Of a stretch of DNA of 64,000 bases, positions 29,685-42,096 are shown piece by piece; positions within the stretch are counted from its first letter, which is position 1, and every line of letters begins with the position of its first letter. Origin of the DNA: an uncultured Chthonomonadaceae bacterium. Its GTDB lineage: Bacteria; Armatimonadota; Chthonomonadetes; Chthonomonadales; Chthonomonadaceae. The stretch spans positions 1,568,001 to 1,632,000 of the forward strand of contig CAWFQB010000001.1 in assembly GCA_963817895.1 (NCBI GenBank). Direction: 5' to 3'. The notes beneath the pieces are model-generated. The model made no database searches. It worked only from the letters and a program-made list of their open reading frames with translations, and had not been told where the DNA came from. The position numbers and the translations under genes were made by a program.

Positions 29685-32075
29685 ATGATTGGAACAACCG
29701 TCGCGGGCCGGTATGAAATAGAAGCGCAAATCGGCGTGGGCGGCATGGGGATCGTGTATCGCGCCCATGATACGCGCCTGCGCCGGGATGTCGCGCTGAA
29801 AGTGATCGCGCCGCACCTGATGCAGCAGGAATCGGCGCGCGTCCGGTTTTTGCGGGAAGCGCAGGCGCTTGCCGGCCTGATGCACCCCCATATTGTCACC
29901 ATCTTCGACATGGCCGAGGATGCGGATTCCAATACCGTGTTTCTGGTCATGGAATTGCTGTCGGGCCATTCTCTGCGCGAGTTTTTGAGCGATGGAACCT
30001 GCCCGAACACTCCCGATTGCCCCCGCTTTTCCGAGATTGCCCTGCCGCTTTGCCGCGCACTGGAAGCCGCCCATAAGCGCGGCGTCCTGCATCGGGACAT
30101 CAAGCCGGAAAACATCTTCGTGTGCGACGACGGCGAATTGAAACTGATGGACTTCGGGCTTGCCCGTTTGCTTGGCGACATGTCCAAAAACCAGTCCAGC
30201 ACGGTGGCGGGAACCCTCGCGTATATGGCTCCCGAACAATTGCGCGGCGACAAACTGGACGCCCGAACGGATTTATACGCGCTGGGGGCCGTGTTCTTCG
30301 AGTTCGTGACGGGAACGCAGCCGTTTATGGGCGACAATCCCGGCACGGTTCTGCTGAAACATCTTACTGAACCGCCGCCCCACTTGCGGGATCGCCTGCC
30401 TGCCCCTCTAAACGCCGACGATGAAGCCACCCTGAACGCGCTGGATGATCTGATTACGCGGCTAATGGCGAAAGAAGCGGGCGAACGTCCGGCAAGCGCT
30501 GGCGAAGTTCGGGACGCGCTGGCGCAAGTGTTGCCGGGGCGCGATACGCTTGCCTTCGCCATAGACCGCCTGCTTGCCACGCAGGGCATAAGGGGCGCGG
30601 GCGCGGCGTACAGCATGACGCGATCTATGCCGCCGGTTTCAATTCCCACCGAGGTTCTGGCCGCGCAGTTAGCCCCCCGGCAAACGACGGAAGTGGCGCA
30701 GGACGCAGAGCAGCCTGCGATTTCAGTTTTGACGCCTGCGGGTTCCCCTTCTCAGGCGGCGGAACTGCTGCCTGAGAATCCGCCCGCCCTCAAATCCTTG
30801 CCCGCATGGAAGCGGCGCGGGGTGGTTGTGGCGGGCATCAGCCTGTTAAGCGCGGCGTCCGTGCTGGCCGCCGTTCAGTTCCGGCCCCATTCCGACACGA
30901 GCGCGGACACGCCGGGTTCTGTTTCCGCTTCCGGTAAGCGGCAGCCTGTACGAAGCGCAGGGTAAAACTGCGGTTGGTTCCGCGCAGCCGGTATCCTCCG
31001 GTTCTTCCGTCGCAGCCGTTCCAGAATCCACGCCACCGGTTTCCGCGCCGTCTCTGGTCAGCAAAACCGGCGCATCCACGCAGCCATTAAAGCAGCCGAT
31101 AAAAACTAACGCTTCTACGCCCGCCGGGGATAACCACGCGCCTGCAACTGCAACCGGCGCAGCCTCCGGCAAAACAGCTTCCGTGTCACCGCCACAACGA
31201 ATTGCCGCTGCAAACGCCCAGTCCTGCAACCTCCTCTCCTCTTTCCAACAGCGCGGAACAGGAAGCATCGCGCAGGGCGCAAGAGGCGCTTATCAAAAAG
31301 CTACAGCAGCAGTTGGAGGCCGAGCGGGCGCGGAAAACGCCTGTGGTTACAAAGACAAAACCCAGCGTATCCGGCGCGACCGCCACCGACATCGGGAGCC
31401 GGTAAGAGCGGCAAGCCTGTCAAGTTGCCGCCCCTGCCCAGTGTCGCGGATGAGGCCACGCCGCCGCTTGTCATCGGCATGAAGGTGACGCGCATTGACA
31501 GAAACGACCCGAAAGCCATTCATATCAGCCTGCAAAACGACGCGGATTGCTACGCTTACTTCTATCTGCTTCCCCCGCCCGCGCATACGGCCACGCGCCT
31601 GTTTGCCGGGTACGAATACTTTCCCGCCGCGCCCAAAACGCCCTACGCGCTCTCACTGTTGCTGCCACATGGCATTGCAAACAGTCGCGGCGCGATTCTG
31701 ATTGTGGCGGCGAAAAAGGAATTGAAAAACCTGCCGCCCACCTTTGATTTACAGCCGCCGCAAACGCAGGCGATTACGCCGGGGATGAGCCGGGAACAAA
31801 TCCAACAAATTGTTCGCCAGAATATTCATCTGTTCAGCGATCAGGTGGCGCAGCAATTAGCCGCAAGCCAGACGCTGCAAGGGGGACAATTGATGCAATC
31901 GCACAACGTATTCGTCCGGCTCATCGGCAACTTCGCGCTGGTATCGGGCCGCCCTCTGGACGGCAGCCGCCGCGATCTCAATGGCGGGCGACGTGGATCG
32001 GGCCGTCCGTCGTTTCAGGGACGCAGGAATTTGCAGCCGCCCGCCGAATCTGGAAATACGGGCGCGAAGCATTGA
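29685..32075 (+). CDS. membrane Ser/Thr protein kinase; C-terminal part spread over frames, ends in a DUF4384-like domain
   Basis: GVGGMGIVY, VALK, HRDIKPEN, DFGLAR, YMAPEQ; TM segment near 30820; downstream frames without their own clear starts. Confidence 0.8.
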
Positions 32076-32100
32076 AATTGAAGACAAAAAGCAAGCGGAA

Positions 32101-32236
32101 TTTAGCCGCGAATTCACGCGAATGAACGCGAATAGGATTATACACCCGTCGCGCTGAATTATCCATTTGAACCACAGGTATCAGGTACCGGGTTTGTCCC
32201 TCGTATCTTGTATCTCGTATCTCGTATCTCATATCT
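32101..32236. repeat. decamer array (32101-32134) and TCGTATC heptamer array (32201-32236)
   Basis: Direct reading. Confidence 0.8.
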
Positions 32237-32262
32237 TCCCCCTCTAAGGAGACTGCGCCGCT

Positions 32263-33609
32263 ATGTCGGACACTTTGCCTGCTGAAATCGAACCGACGGA
32301 CTACCTTGCCACGCTGCTGCAATTAGGGCAGTTGCTCAATTCCAGTCTGGACTTGAAACAGGTGCTGGAAACCGCCATTGAACAGGTCATTAGTTTTGTG
32401 GGCGCGGAGCGCGGATTTATCCTGCTGGTGGACATAGAAACGGGGCGCGTATGGGGTGAGGCCGTGCGCAACATCGAAAAGAGAGCGTTGGAAGCCACGC
32501 TCGGCGACATCGGCGGCGTGAATCAGGCGGAAATCAGCCGCTACATCGTGGAAAGCGCATTGGACACGCGGCAGCCGATTCTCTCCGTCAACGCAATGGA
32601 AGACCCCCGATTCGCGAACCGGCAGAGTGTGCAGTTGACGCATCTGCGCTCGGTCTGCTGCGTGCCGCTTATGGCGCAGGGGCGGTTGTTGGGCATCATT
32701 TATATTGACAACCGCTTGAAATCGGGCGTGTTTACCGAACGGCATCTCGCCATGCTATCGGCGTTTGGCAATCAGGCCGCAGTCGCCATCCAGAACGCCC
32801 GCTTGTACGACAATCTAAGAGGCAGTCTTGAAGAGCGTTTGCGACTGCAAGATGAGTTGCACACGCAGGAAACGCAGCGGCTTGCTTTGGAAGAGGCCAG
32901 CCGCCTGAAATCGGACTTTATCGGGTTTGTCGCCCACGAACTGCGCAATCCGCTGACCACAATACGGGGCTACGTGCAAACAATTCTAGCGGACGAAGAG
33001 CAGACGCTGGATGAGGAGACGAAACACGAGTTTTACGAGGCGATTGAGGCCGATTCCGACCGCCTGCTGGACATGATTAACGAACTGCTGGACGTGTCCC
33101 GACTGGAAGCGGGCCGTCCCCTGTCACTGTCGCAGAAGGAAGTGGATTTGCGCGGCCTGCTGGAAAAAGTGGCGAGGCGGCACAAGTTCTACAAGTTTTT
33201 CACGCCGCAGCACAGCATCGCCACCGACCTTGCGGACGATTTGCCCGAAACGATTACCGCCGATGAGGACAAACTGAACCAAATCCTGTCCAACCTCCTC
33301 AGCAACGCCATCAAATACTCCCCGGACGGCGGCCAGATTACGCTCACGGCGCGTTGGGAGCGGGAAGGGCAGATGCTCATCAGCGTAAAAGACAGCGGCG
33401 TGGGCATGTCGCAGGAGCAGTGCGGGCGCTTGTTCCGGCAGTACGAGCGCATTGACCGCGATTCCATCAAGAACATTCCCGGCACGGGATTGGGCCTGTA
33501 TCTCGTGAAAAGCCTCGTGGAACTGCACGGCGGCGAAATCTCCTGCGAAAGCGCGCCGGGGCAGGGCAGCGCCTTCCTCGTCCGCCTCCCCGTTCCACAG
33601 CCCGCGTAA
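32263..33609 (+). CDS. GAF-domain sensor histidine kinase
   Basis: GAF (RSVCCVPLMAQGRLLGIIYID), H-box FVAHELRNPLT, NLLSNAIKYS, DSGVG, GTGLGL. Confidence 0.95.
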   Translation: MSDTLPAEIEPTDYLATLLQLGQLLNSSLDLKQVLETAIEQVISFVGAERGFILLVDIETGRVWGEAVRNIEKRALEATLGDIGGVNQAEISRYIVESALDTRQPILSVNAMEDPRFANRQSVQLTHLRSVCCVPLMAQGRLLGIIYIDNRLKSGVFTERHLAMLSAFGNQAAVAIQNARLYDNLRGSLEERLRLQDELHTQETQRLALEEASRLKSDFIGFVAHELRNPLTTIRGYVQTILADEEQTLDEETKHEFYEAIEADSDRLLDMINELLDVSRLEAGRPLSLSQKEVDLRGLLEKVARRHKFYKFFTPQHSIATDLADDLPETITADEDKLNQILSNLLSNAIKYSPDGGQITLTARWEREGQMLISVKDSGVGMSQEQCGRLFRQYERIDRDSIKNIPGTGLGLYLVKSLVELHGGEISCESAPGQGSAFLVRLPVPQPA

Positions 33610-33680
33610 ATTGTCTTGCTCTCAGTAAAATAGAAGTGTTCGAGACGATTATCTATGATTGGCGGCGATAGTCAAAAACA

Positions 33681-33708
33681 GTGGGCAGGCACATGGATGC
33701 CTGCCCAC
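33681..33708. terminator. hairpin between convergent genes (terminator or REP-like)
   Basis: GTGGGCAGGCA-CATGGA-TGCCTGCCCAC, 11-bp perfect stem. Confidence 0.6.
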
Positions 33709-33733
33709 AAAGTGCCTCAGTGAACCACGAGCT

Positions 33734-34516
33734 TTAATGAGGTGAGTATTTCGGCATAATTTCCTCAATTATTTTCTTTTGGCCTATAGGTGTCAGCGCA
33801 ACTTCACTGTCACCTACTGGGCGAATCTGCTTCTGCGTTATTAGGCGGGAAAGAGCAGTATTAACGTTGCTCGGTTTTTGGTCTGCGGCTTGCTCACGCA
33901 ATTCAGCGCGTGTTAATCGGTTGTTTGGAGCATGAAACAAGAGTAACAGTATCTCTTCAGGTGCAGTTAGGTTTGTGGCAAGTACAAGAGGCTTACCGTC
34001 CAATTCATGAATGATGGAATGTTGAAGCTGAACAATTTGCTCTATCGTCTCAGCTATAACCTTTCTGTCTTTGTTCCAAGCTAATCGTAGGAACTCAGCG
34101 AACATCCATTTGCATGAATGTAGTACAAGCATTGCATCCATGTAATTCGCGCTGAATTCTGATGAGATGTGAACAACTCCTCGATCTGAACGAAATTCGT
34201 ATACCATTCCGAGAACTTTGCAAAAGTGAGTACGTTCTTTCTGGCCTAGTTTATGAGTCCGCTTTTTGTCGCGGTCAATTAATCCTTCTGCAACCTCACC
34301 GGGGGTAACTGTATGGCTAGGCAACCCTAGGTCAATCTGACGCATTGCCCGTGCGACGGCTTCGCAGAAGCGTCCGCCGTCCAGTTCCGAGGGCTTCCAG
34401 TCACCAGCAAGAAAGCGTTGTTGCATTTCAATATAGGATTGGACGAACTCACAAGCAAATGCCGAGTCAACAAGTGTTGAAAGTTCACTGATAAGTTGTT
34501 CAGAAGTTAGTTTCAT
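33734..34516 (-). CDS. HEPN (Abi_C-like) domain protein with C-terminal winged helix
   Basis: GGRFCEAVAR helix and YEFRSDRGVVH Rx4-6H motif; C-terminal wHTH-like ...LSRLITQKQI...VALTPIG; AT-rich. Confidence 0.65.
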   Translation of the reverse strand: MKLTSEQLISELSTLVDSAFACEFVQSYIEMQQRFLAGDWKPSELDGGRFCEAVARAMRQIDLGLPSHTVTPGEVAEGLIDRDKKRTHKLGQKERTHFCKVLGMVYEFRSDRGVVHISSEFSANYMDAMLVLHSCKWMFAEFLRLAWNKDRKVIAETIEQIVQLQHSIIHELDGKPLVLATNLTAPEEILLLLFHAPNNRLTRAELREQAADQKPSNVNTALSRLITQKQIRPVGDSEVALTPIGQKKIIEEIMPKYSPH

Positions 34517-35850
34517 GTTGCTGTCTCTGGTTTGCCAGAACTTGGCGCTACCAATGCGATAGGAGAAGAATTGGCTATTCTCTCTGCGTGTTCCATTCCC
34601 GGCGGCAAGATTTGGAAGGTGATACCTGTCACCTTTTCCACTTTACCTTCCGCTGCCTTCGACTTCAAGGCTGTTTCAAGATTACGCCCATTTACACGTA
34701 TTTCAAATGCCTCCCACAGAAACTGAGCAAGTTTATCTCTTGAAACCTGTTTGCCGACTTCGTTCAACGCAAGTCGAATAGCCCAAAGCCCGAACAGTGC
34801 CTTGTCCAAGTTAGTTCGATCTTTGACAGCCTTATGTCCATCAACGTCTAGACCAAGGGACTTCCATTTACCAACCCACTCTTTAATGCCTTTCGACGGA
34901 GTGTTTGCTTTACGCCTTGTTGGCTGTTCAGCCGGGTTGGATTGACCTTCTGTTGATGTATTTTCCTTACCTCGTTTCGTCCGGCCTGTCGCATCGGGCA
35001 TCCATCCTGCATCCGTACTTGCGTCAAGCACCTCGCTTAGTACCTTAACGGCTTCTTCACGGCCTGATTGCACTAGCCTAATTTGATCATCTTCACGGCG
35101 AATATCAGAACTGTGAGCAAACCAGTTGCGGTAATTCGCATCATTGGCTGCTTGCTTCTCAACAATCGCATTCAGCAAAGCACGAGAAACGAATGTGTGT
35201 CCTGCTAACTCATGAGCATATAGGAACAAGTAAGTTAAGCGTTTAGAGTAGTCGAGTTTTCCAGATGCTTTCAGGCGTGTCTCCTCTAGTGCCAACTGAT
35301 CGCCATTATCACCTTCCATACGGAAAATGCGCTTCATCTTGGCTTCGTCAGTGTTGCCTTGTGCCACTGCCTGCGTATTGTCAGTAAAAGCTGTGTCAAC
35401 TACATCTTCTGACTTTTCTGTGTGACCCTCGGGAGTAGTTCCCGGCAATGCAAGCTGATTGGTTGGGGTAGCATTGCCATTGCGCGGCGGACGACCATTT
35501 GTTATTTTGCCCGTGTCAAGGCTGTTTGTGATGAGAGAGCCTAACGTCCCGCCTAAATAGCTGAAAGCCACATCTGTGAGTTCTGCATCAAGAGATGCTT
35601 CTTCGTGCTTAGACTTCTGATGTCGCCAATGAATTTGGCTGGTCGTTTGAGGATTTTGAGGCATTTCGAGAGTAGGCTGTTTTTCCACTACAGAAATAGC
35701 CATGCCACAAAACACACAGAAATCTTCGTCTGCTTCAAGCAACTCGACACAATTTACATTTTTGCAGCGAAATTGGCGTCCACATTTTTTGCAGTGAAAT
35801 CCTCTCTGCGGAAGCAAATTGCCACAAGAAAAACATGAATGTTCGTTCAA
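34513..35850 (-). CDS. double zinc-ribbon protein with two probable winged-helix domains
   Basis: CFSC/CKKC/CKNVNC/CVFC at N-terminus; GGAG RBS before TTG; ATGA overlap with next gene. Confidence 0.7.
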   Translation of the reverse strand: MNEHSCFSCGNLLPQRGFHCKKCGRQFRCKNVNCVELLEADEDFCVFCGMAISVVEKQPTLEMPQNPQTTSQIHWRHQKSKHEEASLDAELTDVAFSYLGGTLGSLITNSLDTGKITNGRPPRNGNATPTNQLALPGTTPEGHTEKSEDVVDTAFTDNTQAVAQGNTDEAKMKRIFRMEGDNGDQLALEETRLKASGKLDYSKRLTYLFLYAHELAGHTFVSRALLNAIVEKQAANDANYRNWFAHSSDIRREDDQIRLVQSGREEAVKVLSEVLDASTDAGWMPDATGRTKRGKENTSTEGQSNPAEQPTRRKANTPSKGIKEWVGKWKSLGLDVDGHKAVKDRTNLDKALFGLWAIRLALNEVGKQVSRDKLAQFLWEAFEIRVNGRNLETALKSKAAEGKVEKVTGITFQILPPGMEHAERIANSSPIALVAPSSGKPETAT

Positions 35851-36331
35851 CGTTGGTTACTCCACAACAATATGACATGAGAATCAGTAGTAATTATAGC
35901 ACTTCTGGCCGAGATATGAATTCTGCATGGGCTGATACAAACGCTGATTGCCTTGTTGTACTCTTCCCACTCATCACAACTGACCTTTAATAAACCAACA
36001 TAGTTGCACAACCTGCTTCAGTTCGCGAACAAAGTTCTATTCAGATTCGGTAGACAGCAAAGTGCAGACTTGCAGAGGTTACGGACGTATCTGCTACAAT
36101 AACACAGGTGGGTACAAGGCAATGGCTACGTGGCAGGAAATGGGTGAGGAGAATTTGAAGGCGGCGCAGACACTGCTTGCCGAGGAACACTATCGCAGCA
36201 GCGTGACGCGCTCTTACTACGCTGTGTACTGCCTGATGACGAGCGAGTTGGTCAAGCGCGGAGCCAGTTTTCCGCGTGGCTGGAATAATCCTGCGCACGA
36301 TCAGCCTCCCGATATGGTCTTGAATAATACA

Positions 36332-37756
36332 CAGTATCTTTGCACTTTTGGGTTCAGGCCGCCAAGAGTAGCTGCACCTGCTCTGGCGTGGTTCCTTGTT
36401 GGTAGTGGTCGAATACCCATTGCAGCAGATTGTTCTGGTGTTGTGCCTGTATTTGGCGTCTCATGTGTCCGATACTGACACTTTGCTGTCTGTTCTCAAC
36501 CCTCGGCTTCGGTAGAGAGGCGCGTTGTTCTTCCAGAAACACGTAGGCCAGACACGCAAGCGTCCAGAAGCGCACGACGGCAACATCGCTCATCATCTGG
36601 TAGTGGTCGGTGCCGAAGAGTTCCTTGACATCGGCAAAGAACGTCTCGATGTGCCAGCGGACGGCGATAATGGCAACAAGCGTTGGGGTGTCCGCGTCTA
36701 CCAGACTGCTGACGTAGAAGGTTGTCTTGTGCGGCGGATCCTCCAGGTGACGCTTCACGCACAGCACTTGACACGCGCCTAACTTGCGCACCAGCGTTCG
36801 CCGCCGATGCACCCAGAGAACCTGCCCGCCCGTGTCCGAAGGCCAGACCACCTTCTCGAACTGCTCGTCCGTCACAGATGCGGCGTAAACCGACAGCTTT
36901 TGCCAGACTTTGTTTCCCTGCGCGTCCGTCACGCGCAGACTGCGGTTGCAGGCTAGACCGCCGCTGAGGTCGAAGCCGCGTTGCTTGGCCGCTTTCCACA
37001 GCGCTTTGTTCATGTACCACGCATCTACCAGCGCATGCGTGTGCGTGTCGGGGGCAGGGACAAAGGTTTGCACACACGAAACCGCCATCGCGACCTTGCT
37101 CACGAACGGCGTTTCTTGCGCTTGGCACACGTTCTTGGTCCGGTACATACGTGGCAGCAAGGGACAACGCCTGCCAACAAGCACATACAACGCTTGAAAC
37201 AGGCTATGCCCGCTCACCCGCTTGCCGTGTGTGCTGCTGTGGTGACGCCCTAAACCGCGCATCGTTTTGGCATACGGCTTGGCATGGGTGCTGTCATCCA
37301 TAATCAGGTAACCGGTGAGCAGGGTTGCCTTCGGACGACCGGGCGCTTTGCCGCGCTGTTGTCGTTGGTGTTGATGCGCGTACTGAACGCTTGCTTGCTG
37401 CTGTTGCCGAAAACGGGCTTGCCACTGCTCTGCTAAAGCGGCTTCGCTCCACGGCGCACGGGCAAAGAAGCGCGACAGTCCGGCTAAAGTGACACTGCAT
37501 TGCACTTTGTGCAACATTCCTGAGAGTGTGCGTCGGTCTTCGACTTGCATGAGCGCCAGCAGTACGGTTTCGAGGTACTTGAACTGAGGCTTGCTGAACA
37601 CGCAACGAAATGCGGCTAGGAATTGACAAAGTGCCTGACTTGCGCAGATAATAGGAGTGGGCATGGTTTTCCTCGGGAATGGATGGTTGGCACTTTCCAT
37701 TTTCCACAAAGAAAGCCATGTCCGCTACCCCTTCTTCAAAAAGTGCAAAGATACTG
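36332..37756 (-). mobile_element. complete 1425-bp IS701-like insertion sequence
   Basis: Perfect 18-bp terminal inverted repeats CAGTATCTTTGCACTTTT; 6-bp target duplication AATACA at 36326-36331 and 37757-37762. Confidence 0.95.
36354..37664 (-). CDS. IS701-family DDE transposase
   Basis: LSRFFARAPWSE, LIMDDS, LVDAWY, RWHIETFFADVKELFG. Confidence 0.9.
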   Translation of the reverse strand: MPTPIICASQALCQFLAAFRCVFSKPQFKYLETVLLALMQVEDRRTLSGMLHKVQCSVTLAGLSRFFARAPWSEAALAEQWQARFRQQQQASVQYAHQHQRQQRGKAPGRPKATLLTGYLIMDDSTHAKPYAKTMRGLGRHHSSTHGKRVSGHSLFQALYVLVGRRCPLLPRMYRTKNVCQAQETPFVSKVAMAVSCVQTFVPAPDTHTHALVDAWYMNKALWKAAKQRGFDLSGGLACNRSLRVTDAQGNKVWQKLSVYAASVTDEQFEKVVWPSDTGGQVLWVHRRRTLVRKLGACQVLCVKRHLEDPPHKTTFYVSSLVDADTPTLVAIIAVRWHIETFFADVKELFGTDHYQMMSDVAVVRFWTLACLAYVFLEEQRASLPKPRVENRQQSVSIGHMRRQIQAQHQNNLLQWVFDHYQQGTTPEQVQLLLAA

Positions 37757-37925
37757 AATACAGATTTTCCGCAAAACATCCGCCGCCGATTACGACAAAC
37801 GTTAGTTGTTCTGCGGCGGGCAAGAGAAGACGCAGATTATCGCCCTGTAGCAAATGTAGGCCGTGACATTGCATTAGAAGGTTTACGACGCGCAGATGCC
37901 TTCTTACGTGATCTGGAGAGAACCA

Positions 37926-38204
37926 ATGGCAGAGCAAAATGAACATACGGTTGCGGAAACGGTCAGCCAGTACCTCAAAGATTGTCACCCGGATGGCATT
38001 ACGTTTACGGTGATTGAGGAGGAGGTCAAGCAGGATGAGTTCGGCTGGAAGGTTCCGGTGCTTCTGGATAAAGAGCCGCGCAAGCTCTTCCCTTACTACG
38101 AAGCCCTTGCGGATGTAGAAATCGCGCTGCAAGATGAAGCGCATCTCAAAGTGCTGTTAATTCCGGCCTTCGACCTGATTGACGCGGCAAAGGAAGCCGC
38201 TTAA
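37926..38204 (+). CDS. small acidic partner of the HEPN gene (putative antitoxin)
   Basis: Overlaps HEPN 3' end; 92 aa, acidic; GGAG RBS upstream. Confidence 0.65.
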   Translation: MAEQNEHTVAETVSQYLKDCHPDGITFTVIEEEVKQDEFGWKVPVLLDKEPRKLFPYYEALADVEIALQDEAHLKVLLIPAFDLIDAAKEAA

Positions 38205-38240
38205 CCTTTCAGAAGACAAAATCCCGCAATTTCAGGAACT

Positions 38241-38342
38241 CTGACACCAGGCGCGAAAATCACCCTTGCCGTCCATTGTCATCAAACGGAAGGCGGACAG
38301 GGCGTAGACATTGGCTTTGCTGATGTAGTTGAAAACCATTAG
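38241..38342 (+). pseudogene. orphan 3' fragment of a glycoside-hydrolase-associated beta-sandwich domain
   Basis: LTPGAKITLAVHCHQTEGGQGVDIGFADVVENH* with no upstream gene body. Confidence 0.5.
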
Positions 38343-38362
38343 TTTAATTGAGAAGGCTGTTG

Positions 38363-38569
38363 ATGACCCGAATGGAAGCGTTGATACAAGAGGCAGAAGA
38401 CGTTCCCGAAGTTCTGCTGGATGAAACGCTGGACTTCCTGTGTTTTCTCAAGACCCGATACAATCAAGAGGCGCGTAGCGAATGCATGGAAACGATGCTG
38501 CTCAGTGAATCCGCGCTGGCGAAAGATTGGCTGCGCCCGGAGGAGGACGAGGCATGGCGGGATTTATGA
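38363..38569 (+). CDS. DUF2281-like protein (putative antitoxin)
   Basis: LLDETLDFLCFLK...LLSESALAKDWLRPEEDEAWRDL. Confidence 0.8.
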   Translation: MTRMEALIQEAEDVPEVLLDETLDFLCFLKTRYNQEARSECMETMLLSESALAKDWLRPEEDEAWRDL

Positions 38570-39743
38570 AGTTCTACGCTGTTGTAGGGAGCCTGTTCCT
38601 GTTGATAATAGCGTGTATGGCGCAGGGACAGGAGCCGTTGCAGGTGGTTCAGGCGCGGGACGGCCTGCCCAATGTGTTCGCGAAACTGCGGGCGAACAAG
38701 CCGGTTACGATTGTCTACTTCGGCGGCTCTATTACCGCAGGGGCGGGCGCGAGCAATGGCGACCTGACTTCCTATCGCGCCCGCGTCGGGCAGTGGTTTG
38801 AAACCACGTTTCCCAACAGCAAAATCACCAATGTCAACGCGGCGATTGGCGGCACGGGTTCCGATCTGGGCGCGTTTCGGACAAGCCGGGACGTGCTGGC
38901 GCACAAGCCCGATCTGGTGTTTGTGGAATATGCCGTCAACGATGGCGGCGCGGCGCCCGATATGATTGACCGCAGCATGGAGGGCATTGTCCGGCAAATC
39001 CGCCGCGCCAATTCCGCAACGGACATTTGCTTCGTGTATACCTTTGTGGTCGGCTGGCTGAATGACTTCAAGGCGGGGCGGCTGGTTCGTTCCATACAGC
39101 GCGACGAGGTTGTTGCCGAACACTATGGAATTCCCGCCGTCAATGTCGCCCTGCCCGCCGCCCGAAAACTGATTGACGGCGGCATGACGAGCGAGCAGTT
39201 TTCCAAAGACGGCGTTCACCCGACTGATGCGGGCTACCAGATTTACACCGATACGCTTGTCGGCTTTCTGGATACGGAAAAACAACGCGCCGCGCCTGCC
39301 CGAAAGTTCCGCCTGCCCAAACCGTTACGCGCCGACAGTTTAGAGTACGCCAAAATGCTCGACCCCGCTTCCATGCTGCCGGTTGCCGCAGGCTGGCAGG
39401 TGGAAGAGAAAACCAATAATCGAGACTTTCCCAAACTGCTGGTCAGCGACACGCCGGGTTCGGAAGCGACTCTCTGGTTTACCGGCCCGACATTGGGCGC
39501 GTTCTATGTGCTTGGCCCGGACACGGGCGCGTTCGATTACCGCATTGACGATGGCAACTGGCAAAAATGTGACCCTTCGACGTATTCGCCAAAGGCTACG
39601 CGCGTTCCAGTTATCGCCTGCTGACTGACAACCTGAAAAACGAGCGGCACAATGTCACTCTCCGTATTCGCGCCGACCACAACCCCGACAGCAAAGGCAA
39701 CTGGACGCGCATCGGGTTTCTGCTGACCAATCCGGGCCTCTGA
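38566..39743 (+). CDS. secreted SGNH/GDSL hydrolase (frame change near 39575)
   Basis: YFGGSITAG, NAAIGGTGS, FVEYAVND, DGVHPTDAG. Confidence 0.88.
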
Positions 39744-39789
39744 AATCATCGTGGCCTACTCCCCTGCCGCTGTGCTATAATATAGCACT

Positions 39790-41139
39790 ATGACCCTGCG
39801 AAATCTTCTTACTCCGCTTGCCTTAGTGGGCATTGCGGCTACCATTCTCTTCAGCGAGCGCGTGGTTGCGCCGCCCGCCAAAGACGACAAAATCCACATC
39901 AAATACTGGGAGAAATGGACGGGCATCGAGGGCGACGCCATCAAAGCCACCGTTGACGAGTTTAACCGTTCCCAAAACCGAATTCATGTGGATTTGCTGA
40001 CCATCAGCAGCATCGAGCGCAAAACCCTGCTCGCCACTGCGGGGGGCAATCCGCCGGATATTGCCGGCTTGTACGGCCCCAATGTCGCGCAGTACGCGGA
40101 TGATAACGCCGTTCAGCCCCTCGACGATTATTGCAGGCGCAATGGCATTTCGCGCGACCAGTATATTCCCGTGTATTGGGATATGGGTTCGTATCACGGC
40201 CATCAGTACGCGCTGCCCTCCGTGCCGGGTTCGGTCGCGCTGCACTACCGCCGGGATATGTTCCGGGCGGCAGGCTTGAATCCCGACACGCCCCCGACCA
40301 CGTTTGAGGAGATGGACGCGGCCTCCCAGAAAATCACCACCTACACCGCCGACAAGAAGATAGATAAAGCCGGGTTCATGCCCTCCGAGCCGGGCTGGTG
40401 GGCGTGGTGCTGGGGCTACTACTTCGGCGGCAGTTTGTGGGACGGCAAGGATAAAATCACCGCTAACAGCCCGGAAAACGTCCGCGCCTTCGAGTGGATA
40501 CAATCCTACTCCAAAAAGTTCGGCGGCACGAACCTGCAAAGTTTCCACAGCGGATTGGGCAACTTTTCCAGCCCGCAAAACGGCTTTCTGGACGGCAAAG
40601 TGGCGATGGAACTACAGGGCGTGTGGATGTACAACTTCATCAACAAGTACGCGCCCAAAGTGGAGGCTCCAACCCGCGAATGGGGCGCGGCCCCGTTTCC
40701 GCATCCCGCCGACCGGCCCGATCTGGCAAACGGAACGATTGCCGATGAGGATATTCTCGTGATTCCGCGCGGCGCTCCGCACCCGGACGAGGCGTTCGAG
40801 TTCATCAAGTTTGTCGAGTCGCAAAAAGGCATGGAACTGCTGTGCCTGCTGCAAGGCAAACAATCCGCCCTGCGCAATGTCAGCGCTGAATTTTACAAAA
40901 AGCATCCCAATCCGTTTATCAAGTTGTTCGCCGACCTGCCGAGTGGCAAAAACGTGTTCACGCCGCCCAAAATAGGCATCTGGCCGGAGTACAGTGACGA
41001 AATCACCAACGCTTTCGACGAGATCTCCCTAGAAAAGAAGACGCCCAAAGAGGCGCTTGACGCGGTTCAGGCGCGGATGCAGCCCAAACTCGACGAGTAT
41101 CTGGAACAGTTGCGCAAACGCGCCTCTTCAACACCATGA
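39790..41139 (+). CDS. sugar ABC transporter substrate-binding protein
   Basis: YWEKWTG, AGGNPPDI, FLDGKVAMELQGVW, family 1 SBP pattern. Confidence 0.9.
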   Translation: MTLRNLLTPLALVGIAATILFSERVVAPPAKDDKIHIKYWEKWTGIEGDAIKATVDEFNRSQNRIHVDLLTISSIERKTLLATAGGNPPDIAGLYGPNVAQYADDNAVQPLDDYCRRNGISRDQYIPVYWDMGSYHGHQYALPSVPGSVALHYRRDMFRAAGLNPDTPPTTFEEMDAASQKITTYTADKKIDKAGFMPSEPGWWAWCWGYYFGGSLWDGKDKITANSPENVRAFEWIQSYSKKFGGTNLQSFHSGLGNFSSPQNGFLDGKVAMELQGVWMYNFINKYAPKVEAPTREWGAAPFPHPADRPDLANGTIADEDILVIPRGAPHPDEAFEFIKFVESQKGMELLCLLQGKQSALRNVSAEFYKKHPNPFIKLFADLPSGKNVFTPPKIGIWPEYSDEITNAFDEISLEKKTPKEALDAVQARMQPKLDEYLEQLRKRASSTP

Positions 41140-42096
41140 CCAACCCACAATCCACAACCCAAAATCGCCAATCGCAAAGCGCCAATCGTAAATCAAAAAT
41201 GGGCAGAGCCGCCCGTAACGAGGCGCTGACCGCGCTGCTGTTCGCGAGTCCGTGGCTTATCGGGTTCAGCGTGTTTATGTTGTATCCGCTTCTGGCCTCC
41301 ATCTATTACAGCTTCTGCGATTACTCCGTGCTGCGTCCGCCCGTGTATACCGGGCTGGCGAACTACCAGAATCTGACTGCGCGATCAGGTGTTCAAAGAC
41401 GCCTTCTGGAACACGTTCTGGTACGCCATTTACGCCCTGCCCATCAGCACGTTTGCCGCGCTCAGTCTCGCCCTGCTGCTCAACACCAAAGTGCGTGGCA
41501 TGACGTTTTACCGCGCTCTGTTTTACGTGCCGTCCCTCGTTCCCGCAGTGGCGACGGGCGTGTTGATTACGTGGATATTCAACGGGCAGCATGGCGTATT
41601 GAACGAACTTCTCAATCCGATTTTAGGTCGTTTCGGCTGGAAAGCGCCGCAATGGCTGGGCGATCCCGTCTGGTCGAAAGCGACCCTGATTATCATGGCG
41701 GCGTGGGGGGCGGGCAACGCGATGGTGATTTACCTCGCGGGGTTGCAGGACGTGCCGCAGCCCCTCTATGAAGCAGCGGATTTGGACGGCGCGAACTGGT
41801 GGCAGAAAACGCGCAACGTGACCATTCCCATGCTGTCGCCCGTGATTTTGTTCAACGTCATCATGGGACTGATTGGAACCCTTCAGGTGTTCACCGTGCC
41901 GTATCTGGTTTCGCCTGCCGGTTCGCCTGCCCGCTCGATTTATTTCTATACCATGTACCTGTTCGACAACGCTTTTATCTATCACAAAATGGGCTACGCC
42001 AGCGCGATGGGCTGGATCATGTTCCTCATCATTCTCGCGCTCACAATGCTGTCCCTGCGCCTGTCAAAACGCTTCGTGCATTACGGCTCTTCTTAA
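41136..42096 (+). CDS. sugar ABC transporter permease (frame change near 41382)
   Basis: SPWLIGF, LYEAADLDGA, YMFDNAF-like YLFDNAF...MGYASAMGW; repeat-encoded N-terminus. Confidence 0.9.

Follow-up and report, generated by a model that had tools for sequence, protein, structure and literature searches.

A winged-helix/HEPN gene pair from a Chthonomonadaceae bacterium as a predicted anti-phage module, likely of the poly-wHTH class

Analysis of a 64,000-nucleotide stretch of the genome of an uncultured Chthonomonadaceae bacterium (contig CAWFQB010000001.1, positions 1,568,001 to 1,632,000; hereafter the window) revealed a gene pair that likely has an anti-phage role in some form. Gene 1 is predicted to encode a double zinc ribbon followed by two domains of the winged helix-turn-helix (wHTH) type, and gene 2 a HEPN domain with a wHTH of its own. 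We tentatively regard the pair as an abortive-infection module of the poly-wHTH class, in which gene 1 would be a sensor-activator and gene 2 a latent ribonuclease (RNase). An earlier reading of the window without database searches (the sequence-only reading) had proposed a candidate anti-phage module at this place, and the proposal is supported by the linkage of the two genes and by their defence context. The genes and their domains are as follows:

34513..35850, minus strand: gene 1, 445 amino acids, TTG start, unbroken open reading frame
35695..35841, minus strand: double zinc ribbon of gene 1, residues 4-52, with eight invariant Cys
35518..35643, minus strand: conserved module of gene 1, residues about 70-111, with the look of a beta-hairpin plus helix by eye
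34987..35367, minus strand: first winged helix of gene 1 (wHTH1), residues about 162-288, VIA Z 8.6 to 2qvo, root-mean-square deviation (rmsd) 3.0, 80 residues aligned, found in long and short forms
34567..34893, minus strand: second winged helix of gene 1 (wHTH2), residues about 320-428, VIA Z 8.5 to 1stz, missing from 290-residue forms
33734..34516, minus strand: gene 2, 260 amino acids, unbroken open reading frame
34169..34192, minus strand: HEPN catalytic motif R109-x6-H116 of gene 2, from the homologue alignment
33746..33982, minus strand: winged helix of gene 2, residues about 179-257, VIA Z 11.4 to 4hqe, rmsd 2.3, 78 residues aligned

The two frames share an ATGA overlap on the minus strand. 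Both are intact and all peptides quoted in the sequence-only reading were found in them, so its description of an overlapping, frameshift-free pair held. The pair was also AT-rich as described, with a GC content of 0.462 versus 0.569 for the whole window; among 248 segments of the same length, just one had a value as low.

The structure model of gene 2 (predicted local distance difference test score, pLDDT, 82.7) consisted of an N-terminal HEPN domain and a C-terminal wHTH, the arrangement that had been suspected from its motifs. Residues about 10-149 aligned to the HEPN structure 2hsb with a Z-score of 9.9 and an rmsd of 3.6 over 120 residues, and further HEPN alignments were obtained with sacsin (3o10, Z 9.6) and 1wol (Z 9.4). 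The catalytic motif was nearly invariant. Among 106 diverse homologues, most of which share just 20-33% identity with gene 2, E52 was present in 106, R109 in 104, H116 in 105 and R112 in 100. A hallmark of the HEPN superfamily is metal-independent RNase activity as a dimer. By analogy, gene 2 is predicted to be an RNase that acts as a dimer, and its activity may cause growth arrest.

The family libraries used were PADLOC-DB 2.0, NCBIfam 20.0 and Pfam, at curated cut-offs. The gene 1 and gene 2 proteins of the window had no match in PADLOC and none at cut-off in Pfam or NCBIfam. Among gene 2 homologues, 37 members stayed below the cut-offs of PADLOC (best E 1e-3) and Pfam (best E 8e-4), and none of the 106 reached cut-off in NCBIfam (best E 1e-3). 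Searched against the sequences of solved structures, the gene 2 profile had no match with an E-value under 0.3, and Foldseek found no match at E 0.001 or better with the model of either gene. In the ESM Atlas, both proteins fell into clusters without a family name of their own; the nearest named clusters to gene 2 were Ymh (0.78) and DUF4145 (0.75).

Gene 1 is arranged as a double zinc ribbon, a conserved short module, a disordered linker, wHTH1, a second linker and wHTH2. The four Cys pairs and two segments with wing-like motifs picked out by the sequence-only reading correspond to eight Cys residues (C6, C9, C20, C23, C29, C34, C45 and C48), invariant in 52 homologues, and to two wHTH domains in the structure model. 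The zinc-ribbon region of this model was confident, residues 56-163 were mostly disordered, and two folded domains were seen. The Pfam DZR match of gene 1 was below cut-off (E 0.028), and DZR occurred in 21-58% of the members of neighbouring ESM Atlas clusters. Within the short module N74 and E80 were nearly invariant, its pLDDT in the monomer model was low, and it is shared with the homologue at L198 (loci are numbered with the prefix L). More speculatively, this module may let gene 1 oligomerise. Homology of the module to the N-termini of distant partners was unsupported in profile comparison (P under 1%), the resemblance being one by eye only.

The wHTH2 of gene 1 matched the wHTH of gene 2 by profile (P 95%, E 2.9e-8). 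Judged by their fold, the winged helices of gene 1 may bind nucleic acid. A DUF3095 match of gene 1 (Pfam E 1.5e-4, below cut-off) was set aside as an artefact of the wHTH region, and the likeness of gene 1 to the silencer Rok, a single weak Foldseek row (E 0.33), is a lead only.

The gene 2 profile matched about 750 clusters at 50% identity (E 0.001 or better). In GTDB genomes it matched 68 loci, from lineages that included cyanobacteria, Acidobacteriota, Armatimonadota, Bacteroidota, Chloroflexota and Actinomycetota. Its occurrence was patchy, with matches in 0 of 2 genomes of the same genus and 6 of 301 genomes of the phylum. Together with the matches across many phyla and the low GC content, this implied horizontal spread, and our preferred explanation takes the pair to be a horizontally spread two-gene operon. 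No relatives of gene 2 were found in the viral contigs searched. Plasmids held no match for gene 2 and one weak, archaeal match for a distant relative only, and three of the four partner queries had no plasmid match.

The linkage of homologues, which the sequence-only reading had put forward as a check, was tight. We kept the best 80 of 283 metagenome loci, 12 of which had under 300 nucleotides (nt) upstream. In the 68 with at least 300 nt, a gene 1 homologue lay just upstream of gene 2 in 65; one of the other three had a frameshifted gene 1 and two had different partners. Gene 1 occurred in a long form and in a 290-residue form without wHTH2. Distant gene 2 clades had other coupled partners that likewise ended in a winged helix, with N-termini of zinc-ribbon, hairpin-helix or helical type as judged by eye, and two or three separate partner genes were present at L043, L050, L174 and L178. 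Partner type clustered on the gene 2 tree (7 changes versus 22.2 after shuffling), a clustering that kinship alone can produce. Over the same 52 loci, mean pairwise identity was 39% for wHTH1, 36% for wHTH2 (40 rows) and 62.5% for HEPN. The winged helices of gene 1 thus diverged faster than HEPN, as expected of a sensor.

The sequence-only reading had matched the architecture to no named system. A class that fits was, however, recently predicted. Poly-wHTH (PRA-wHTH) systems were proposed by Li, Burroughs and Aravind in an October 2026 preprint whose evidence is computational prediction only (bioRxiv 10.64898/2026.10.19.760177). According to the passages of this preprint that we used, a fast-evolving wHTH was first found upstream of ParA-Tox-RelA; it also stands alone or precedes other effector genes, which most often encode HEPN and otherwise cyclase, HKD or TIR proteins. 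Its copies may be tandem or separate, and the N-terminal extensions number at least four. Our literature search found no experimental test of the class, and the term was confined to that preprint. Nor did the search find a paper describing a HEPN-wHTH or wHTH-HEPN pair under those names.

To relate the pair to this class, we used two profiles. Profile A10 was built only from partners of the distant relatives of gene 2, and A11 consisted of A10 plus its first-round matches. The search covered 1,605 genome slots, and 23 loci were examined, with known, duplicate and unpublished loci skipped. Downstream of the matched wHTH gene we found the gene 2 family at two loci, a second wHTH-HEPN family at five and ParA at one, and by eye a HEPN-like protein at three, an unnamed helical family at three and a TIR-like protein at one. 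The remaining eight had no evident effector. The order at the ParA locus was wHTH, ParA and a RelA/SpoT-type synthetase, which is the type case in the cited passages of the preprint, and A11 matched the wHTH of L223/L225 (E 1e-6), which precedes ParA and a RelA/SpoT-type protein. Gene 1 was tied to these proteins indirectly, through its homologues. In a search of 52 sequences, A11 matched wHTH2 of the gene 1 homologues L143 (E 3e-8), L160 and L140 (E 3e-8 to 1e-5), and the partner profile matched gene 1 wHTH2 with P 77% and E 2e-5. L198 fuses the zinc ribbon and short module of gene 1 to an A11-type wHTH (P 97.7%). The gene 1 protein of the window itself was matched by neither A10 nor A11.

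Several other arrangements were noted. The second effector family, in the order wHTH then HEPN, was found at L185, L188, L193, L197, L201, L202, L208, L216 and L181, and its HEPN did not align to that of gene 2 in a shallow profile test. The unnamed helical family of 260-290 residues occupied the effector position behind a wHTH partner in three genomes (L203, L204 and L224). On a Haloarcula plasmid (NZ_CP119795.1; L180:3547-5520), small winged-helix-like genes formed an overlapping series in which no enzyme was evident. PADLOC gave no match at E 1e-8 for the partner variants, 17 of which had been included deliberately while the others came from the neighbour set.

The pattern of gene decay bears on the role of gene 1. 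De-duplication reduced 91 close-clade loci off contig edges to 77. In 60 of these both genes were intact; gene 1 was broken beside an intact gene 2 that kept its motif in 8, gene 2 was broken with gene 1 intact in 6 (7 with L167, which the distance cut had put in the wrong class), and both were broken in 3 (2 without L167). The cleanest case was L009, where an in-frame loss matched residues 158-369 of a Nostoc homologue and the upstream WYL gene was kept. A pair with a constitutively lethal toxin would be expected to lose the toxin before the antitoxin. Such toxin-first loss was not seen, so the evidence leans towards gene 1 as a sensor or activator rather than an antitoxin. The sequence-only reading had left open whether gene 1 was a sensor or an inhibitor; the decay counts (8 versus 7) lean towards the sensor.

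The neighbourhood enrichment suggested earlier as a check was also examined. The nearest gene on each side of the de-duplicated loci was scanned with Pfam (150 of 184 genes). For the control, 20 arbitrary stretches of 11 kb were taken from 17 of the same genomes and 145 of their 179 genes were scanned, the 34 omitted being mostly long or edge genes. Defence or toxin-antitoxin (TA) families accounted for 28 of the 150 nearest genes versus 3 of the 145 controls (Fisher p 1e-6). A strict list (YhcG, DndB, SEFIR, type I and ISP restriction, BamHI, Mrr, SIR2, AbiEi, RES, Fic, PIN, MNT and Uma2) left 21 of the 150 (p 1e-4), or 16 with DndB counted once (p 0.002). Mobile-element genes were nearest in 9 of 150 cases versus 0 of 145 (p 0.002), a count that omits an insertion sequence (IS) that itself broke gene 2. 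A wider PADLOC scan covered about 5 kb on each side and compared 335 non-Nostoc neighbours with 142 controls; with candidate PDC systems included, it gave 21/335 versus 3/142 (p 0.04). Two 'mad3' matches were dropped from it, since by Pfam they were UvrA (L068) and RecN-like (L088). Neighbours included restriction-modification (RM), SEFIR, AbiE/AbiL, NucC, pPIWI and WYL genes, as well as integrases, a resolvase, mobilisation genes and TA genes.

In our tentatively preferred explanation, gene 1 would use its two winged helices to bind the nucleic acid of an invader and, having done so, would activate gene 2. The predicted HEPN RNase would cut cellular RNA and thereby halt the infected cell. Less securely, gene 2 might dock on the gene 1 array through its own related winged helix, and activation rather than inhibition by gene 1 is likewise among the weaker parts of the proposal. 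The exchange of effectors behind the same wHTH family (HEPN families, TIR-like, ParA-RelA/SpoT or none), as described in the cited part of the poly-wHTH preprint, supports this explanation. A number of observations weigh on the other side. The eight of 23 wHTH loci without an evident effector would also fit orphan antitoxins, and the winged-helix protein of type IX retrons is reported to inhibit its HEPN, as described in the passages that we used (bioRxiv 10.64898/2026.07.14.738597). The argument from decay is soft: breaks in gene 1 can silence gene 2 via translational coupling; most of the decay loci are metagenome-assembled genomes or metagenome assemblies, in which assembly errors are possible; and three of the eight loci with a broken gene 1 may be silent or functional (L017 has no upstream region, and L006 and L019 may yield a usable protein). 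The Pfam classes of the neighbours were assigned by hand after being seen, the neighbourhood p-values overstate because related loci are non-independent, and for established systems the wider PADLOC scan was not significant (13/335 versus 2/142, p 0.13). Finally, gene 2 obtained HEPN Z-scores that for a helical bundle are middling, and a related helical domain, that of LinB, scored equally high (Z 10.2), but the conserved motif (E52, R109, R112 and H116) agrees with the HEPN assignment.

The same evidence can be read in other ways. Gene 1 might be a guard or antitoxin that blocks the HEPN protein until a phage attacks either the host DNA or gene 1 and so frees the RNase. A precedent exists in Retron-Kva2 (type IX), where, in the cited part of the study, HEPN alone was toxic and the winged-helix (WH) protein alone mitigated this toxicity (bioRxiv 10.64898/2026.07.14.738597); the partner-first gene order with ATGA coupling and the existence of solo partners are also consistent with it. 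However, gene 2 has stayed intact at eight loci with a broken gene 1, L009 among them. Partners are also exchanged between unrelated effectors, and a sensor would allow such exchange more easily than a specific inhibitor. We consider this role somewhat unlikely. The preprint itself proposes, in the passages used here, that the winged helices coat and block invader DNA, and HEPN would then be only a backup (bioRxiv 10.64898/2026.10.19.760177). Runs of wHTH genes such as that at L180, and the effector-free loci (8/23), agree with such coating, but HEPN is the most conserved part of the pair, and gene 1 was not seen without gene 2 in 22 genomes (chosen for gene 2), where full-length matches occurred only at known pairs. 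Coating as the main function of this pair therefore seemed improbable to us.

A plain TA, addiction or stress module of mobile islands, without any anti-phage role, would account for the integrases, resolvase, mobilisation and TA genes among the neighbours, and the pair's own neighbours in the window are TA-like remnants. Against such a module stand the absence of toxin-first decay, the plasmid searches (no match for gene 2 and a weak one for a distant relative) and the RM, SEFIR, AbiE/AbiL, NucC, pPIWI and WYL neighbours, and we judged it improbable. Alternatively, the two proteins might be transcription regulators or RNA-processing factors that lack any toxic output, in line with the match in fold between all three winged helices and regulators of the MarR/PadR type. 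The near-invariant catalytic motif, patchy spread, frequent broken copies and defence-gene neighbours make this a very unlikely account. Beyond the sensor-activator explanation that we prefer for this pair, the relatives of gene 1 could form an effector-agnostic sensor, a winged-helix array that polymerises on foreign DNA and activates enzymes carrying a matching winged helix. We offer this generalisation as speculation that is less likely to hold.

Features around the pair in the window, including possible transcript signals, are listed below:

35893..35920, minus strand: promoter-like site, TTCATA, 16-nt spacer and TG-extended TATAAT (TGcTATAAT), a consensus match only
35860..35863, minus strand: ribosome-binding site GGAG, 9 nt ahead of the TTG start of gene 1, read from the sequence
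33681..33708, minus strand: intrinsic-terminator-like hairpin directly after gene 2, with a perfect 12-bp stem and then a T run
36122-37942, plus strand: split small HEPN gene, PF05168-like in both halves
36332-37756: IS701-like element within the split HEPN gene, with an apparent 6-bp target duplication
36332-36349 and 37739-37756: perfect 18-nt terminal inverted repeats of the IS701-like element

The TGnTATAAT element named in the sequence-only reading is present and runs to 35893, and a weak -35 hexamer precedes it by 16 nt. However, a promoter scan gave 4 sites versus 3.2 expected in shuffled sequence, so this site alone is not above chance. Neither a repeat array near the pair nor an Rfam match within 30000-42000 was found, and an RNA antitoxin is thus not indicated. 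The pair is flanked by a histidine kinase, the split HEPN gene and the IS. An adjacent HEPN gene and an IS had both been reported; both are present, but the HEPN gene is not intact, being split by the IS701-like element. Its C-terminal part has R-x4-Y instead of R-x4-6-H. It is followed by a short overlapping gene (to 38204) and then by a DUF2281-like orphan (to 38569; weak, E 0.002).

Recurrent associations were seen at other loci of the family. A divergent WYL-type gene lay upstream of cyanobacterial copies (19 loci). In a cyanobacterial cassette (L003:7342-12177 and other Nostoc and Leptolyngbya loci), the divergent WYL-type gene, the pair and two conserved unknown genes stayed together in varied surroundings, and the spacer contained two conserved hexamers in inverted orientation, separated by about 65-70 nt, possibly a regulator site. 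A pPIWI-RE and DinG-type module stood directly downstream of the cassette at three Nostoc loci (L002:4172-5855, L007 and L014). At six loci (L022:7385-8782, L104, L133, L105:344-1468, L027:6690-8342 and L116:3070-4692), a DndB/DGQHR-family gene immediately preceded gene 1 on the same strand, and in four of them the two genes overlapped. These DndB-family genes belong to four lineages with no more than 25% identity, and together with the pair they may constitute a three-gene variant. At three related loci (L115:4428-4715, L118 and L122), a DUF3892 gene preceded gene 1 at a distance of 42 nt. tRNA or tmRNA genes occurred at 10 of 56 loci; this count had no control set and was not used as evidence.

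If the effector-agnostic sensor were real, homotypic wHTH-wHTH signalling would serve HEPN RNases, TIR-like enzymes and ParA-RelA alike. WYL regulators and the four unrelated groups of DndB-family proteins would be recurring add-ons, and the gene 1 array would be built like a nucleoid protein, with an assembly module, a flexible linker and a winged helix. The paralogous winged helix common to sensor and effector suggests how the two could communicate. The locus of the window is a compact, intact and self-contained poly-wHTH candidate with a promoter-like site and a terminator, and it is directly clonable. Current counts of defence systems miss this effector family, since its approximately 750 clusters are unnamed in Pfam, NCBIfam and PADLOC. 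To the prediction of the class, our analysis adds a controlled neighbourhood test and a pattern of decay that leans away from a simple toxin-antitoxin pair.

Among known systems, the families Abi_C/AbiJ, Ymh and DUF4145 (Anantharaman et al. 2013, PMC3710099) share with gene 2 the HEPN fold, the Rx4-6H motif and a defence-island context. In contrast, no member of the gene 2 family matched them better than E 0.003, with 1 of 37 members weakly Abi_C-like (E 0.003), and the HEPN-wHTH order with an obligate wHTH partner does not appear in the cited passages of PMC3710099. The main-text passages of PMC10853773 and PMC12839542 that we used likewise contain no description of this pair.

The closest tested analogue is the type IX retron, in which a HEPN RNase is coupled to a winged-helix partner and which, in the cited parts of the reports, causes abortive infection through rRNA and tRNA cleavage (bioRxiv 10.64898/2026.07.14.738597; PMC7736814). 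As described there, however, it needs a reverse transcriptase and multicopy single-stranded DNA (msDNA), its HEPN gene comes first and lacks Rx4-6H, and its WH protein inhibits. The pair has a canonical HEPN motif, no reverse transcriptase in the flanking genes and no Rfam match. Retron reverse transcriptase models matched none of the 414 neighbour genes, and PADLOC HEPN_IX gave no match.

The poly-wHTH class comes nearest in architecture. In common with the class as set out in the cited passages, the pair has an upstream, fast-evolving wHTH gene and a downstream effector, most often HEPN, and its family has several wHTH copies (in this pair, two belong to gene 1 and a third to gene 2) and variable N-terminal extensions. 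There are also differences. The zinc ribbon of gene 1 is absent from the main text of the preprint, although Figure 6F or the supplement may show it; a HEPN with its own C-terminal wHTH and links to WYL are not in the passages used, nor DndB in the main text. The primary agent is the wHTH according to those passages, whereas HEPN is the conserved core in this clade. Taken together, the pair likely belongs to the poly-wHTH class. The assignment falls short of proof because the tie to gene 1 is indirect, running through its homologues and L198, with the protein of the window itself unmatched. The zinc-ribbon/HEPN-wHTH form is likely a variant of this recently predicted class, or only a further member of it if the preprint's figure already shows this form.

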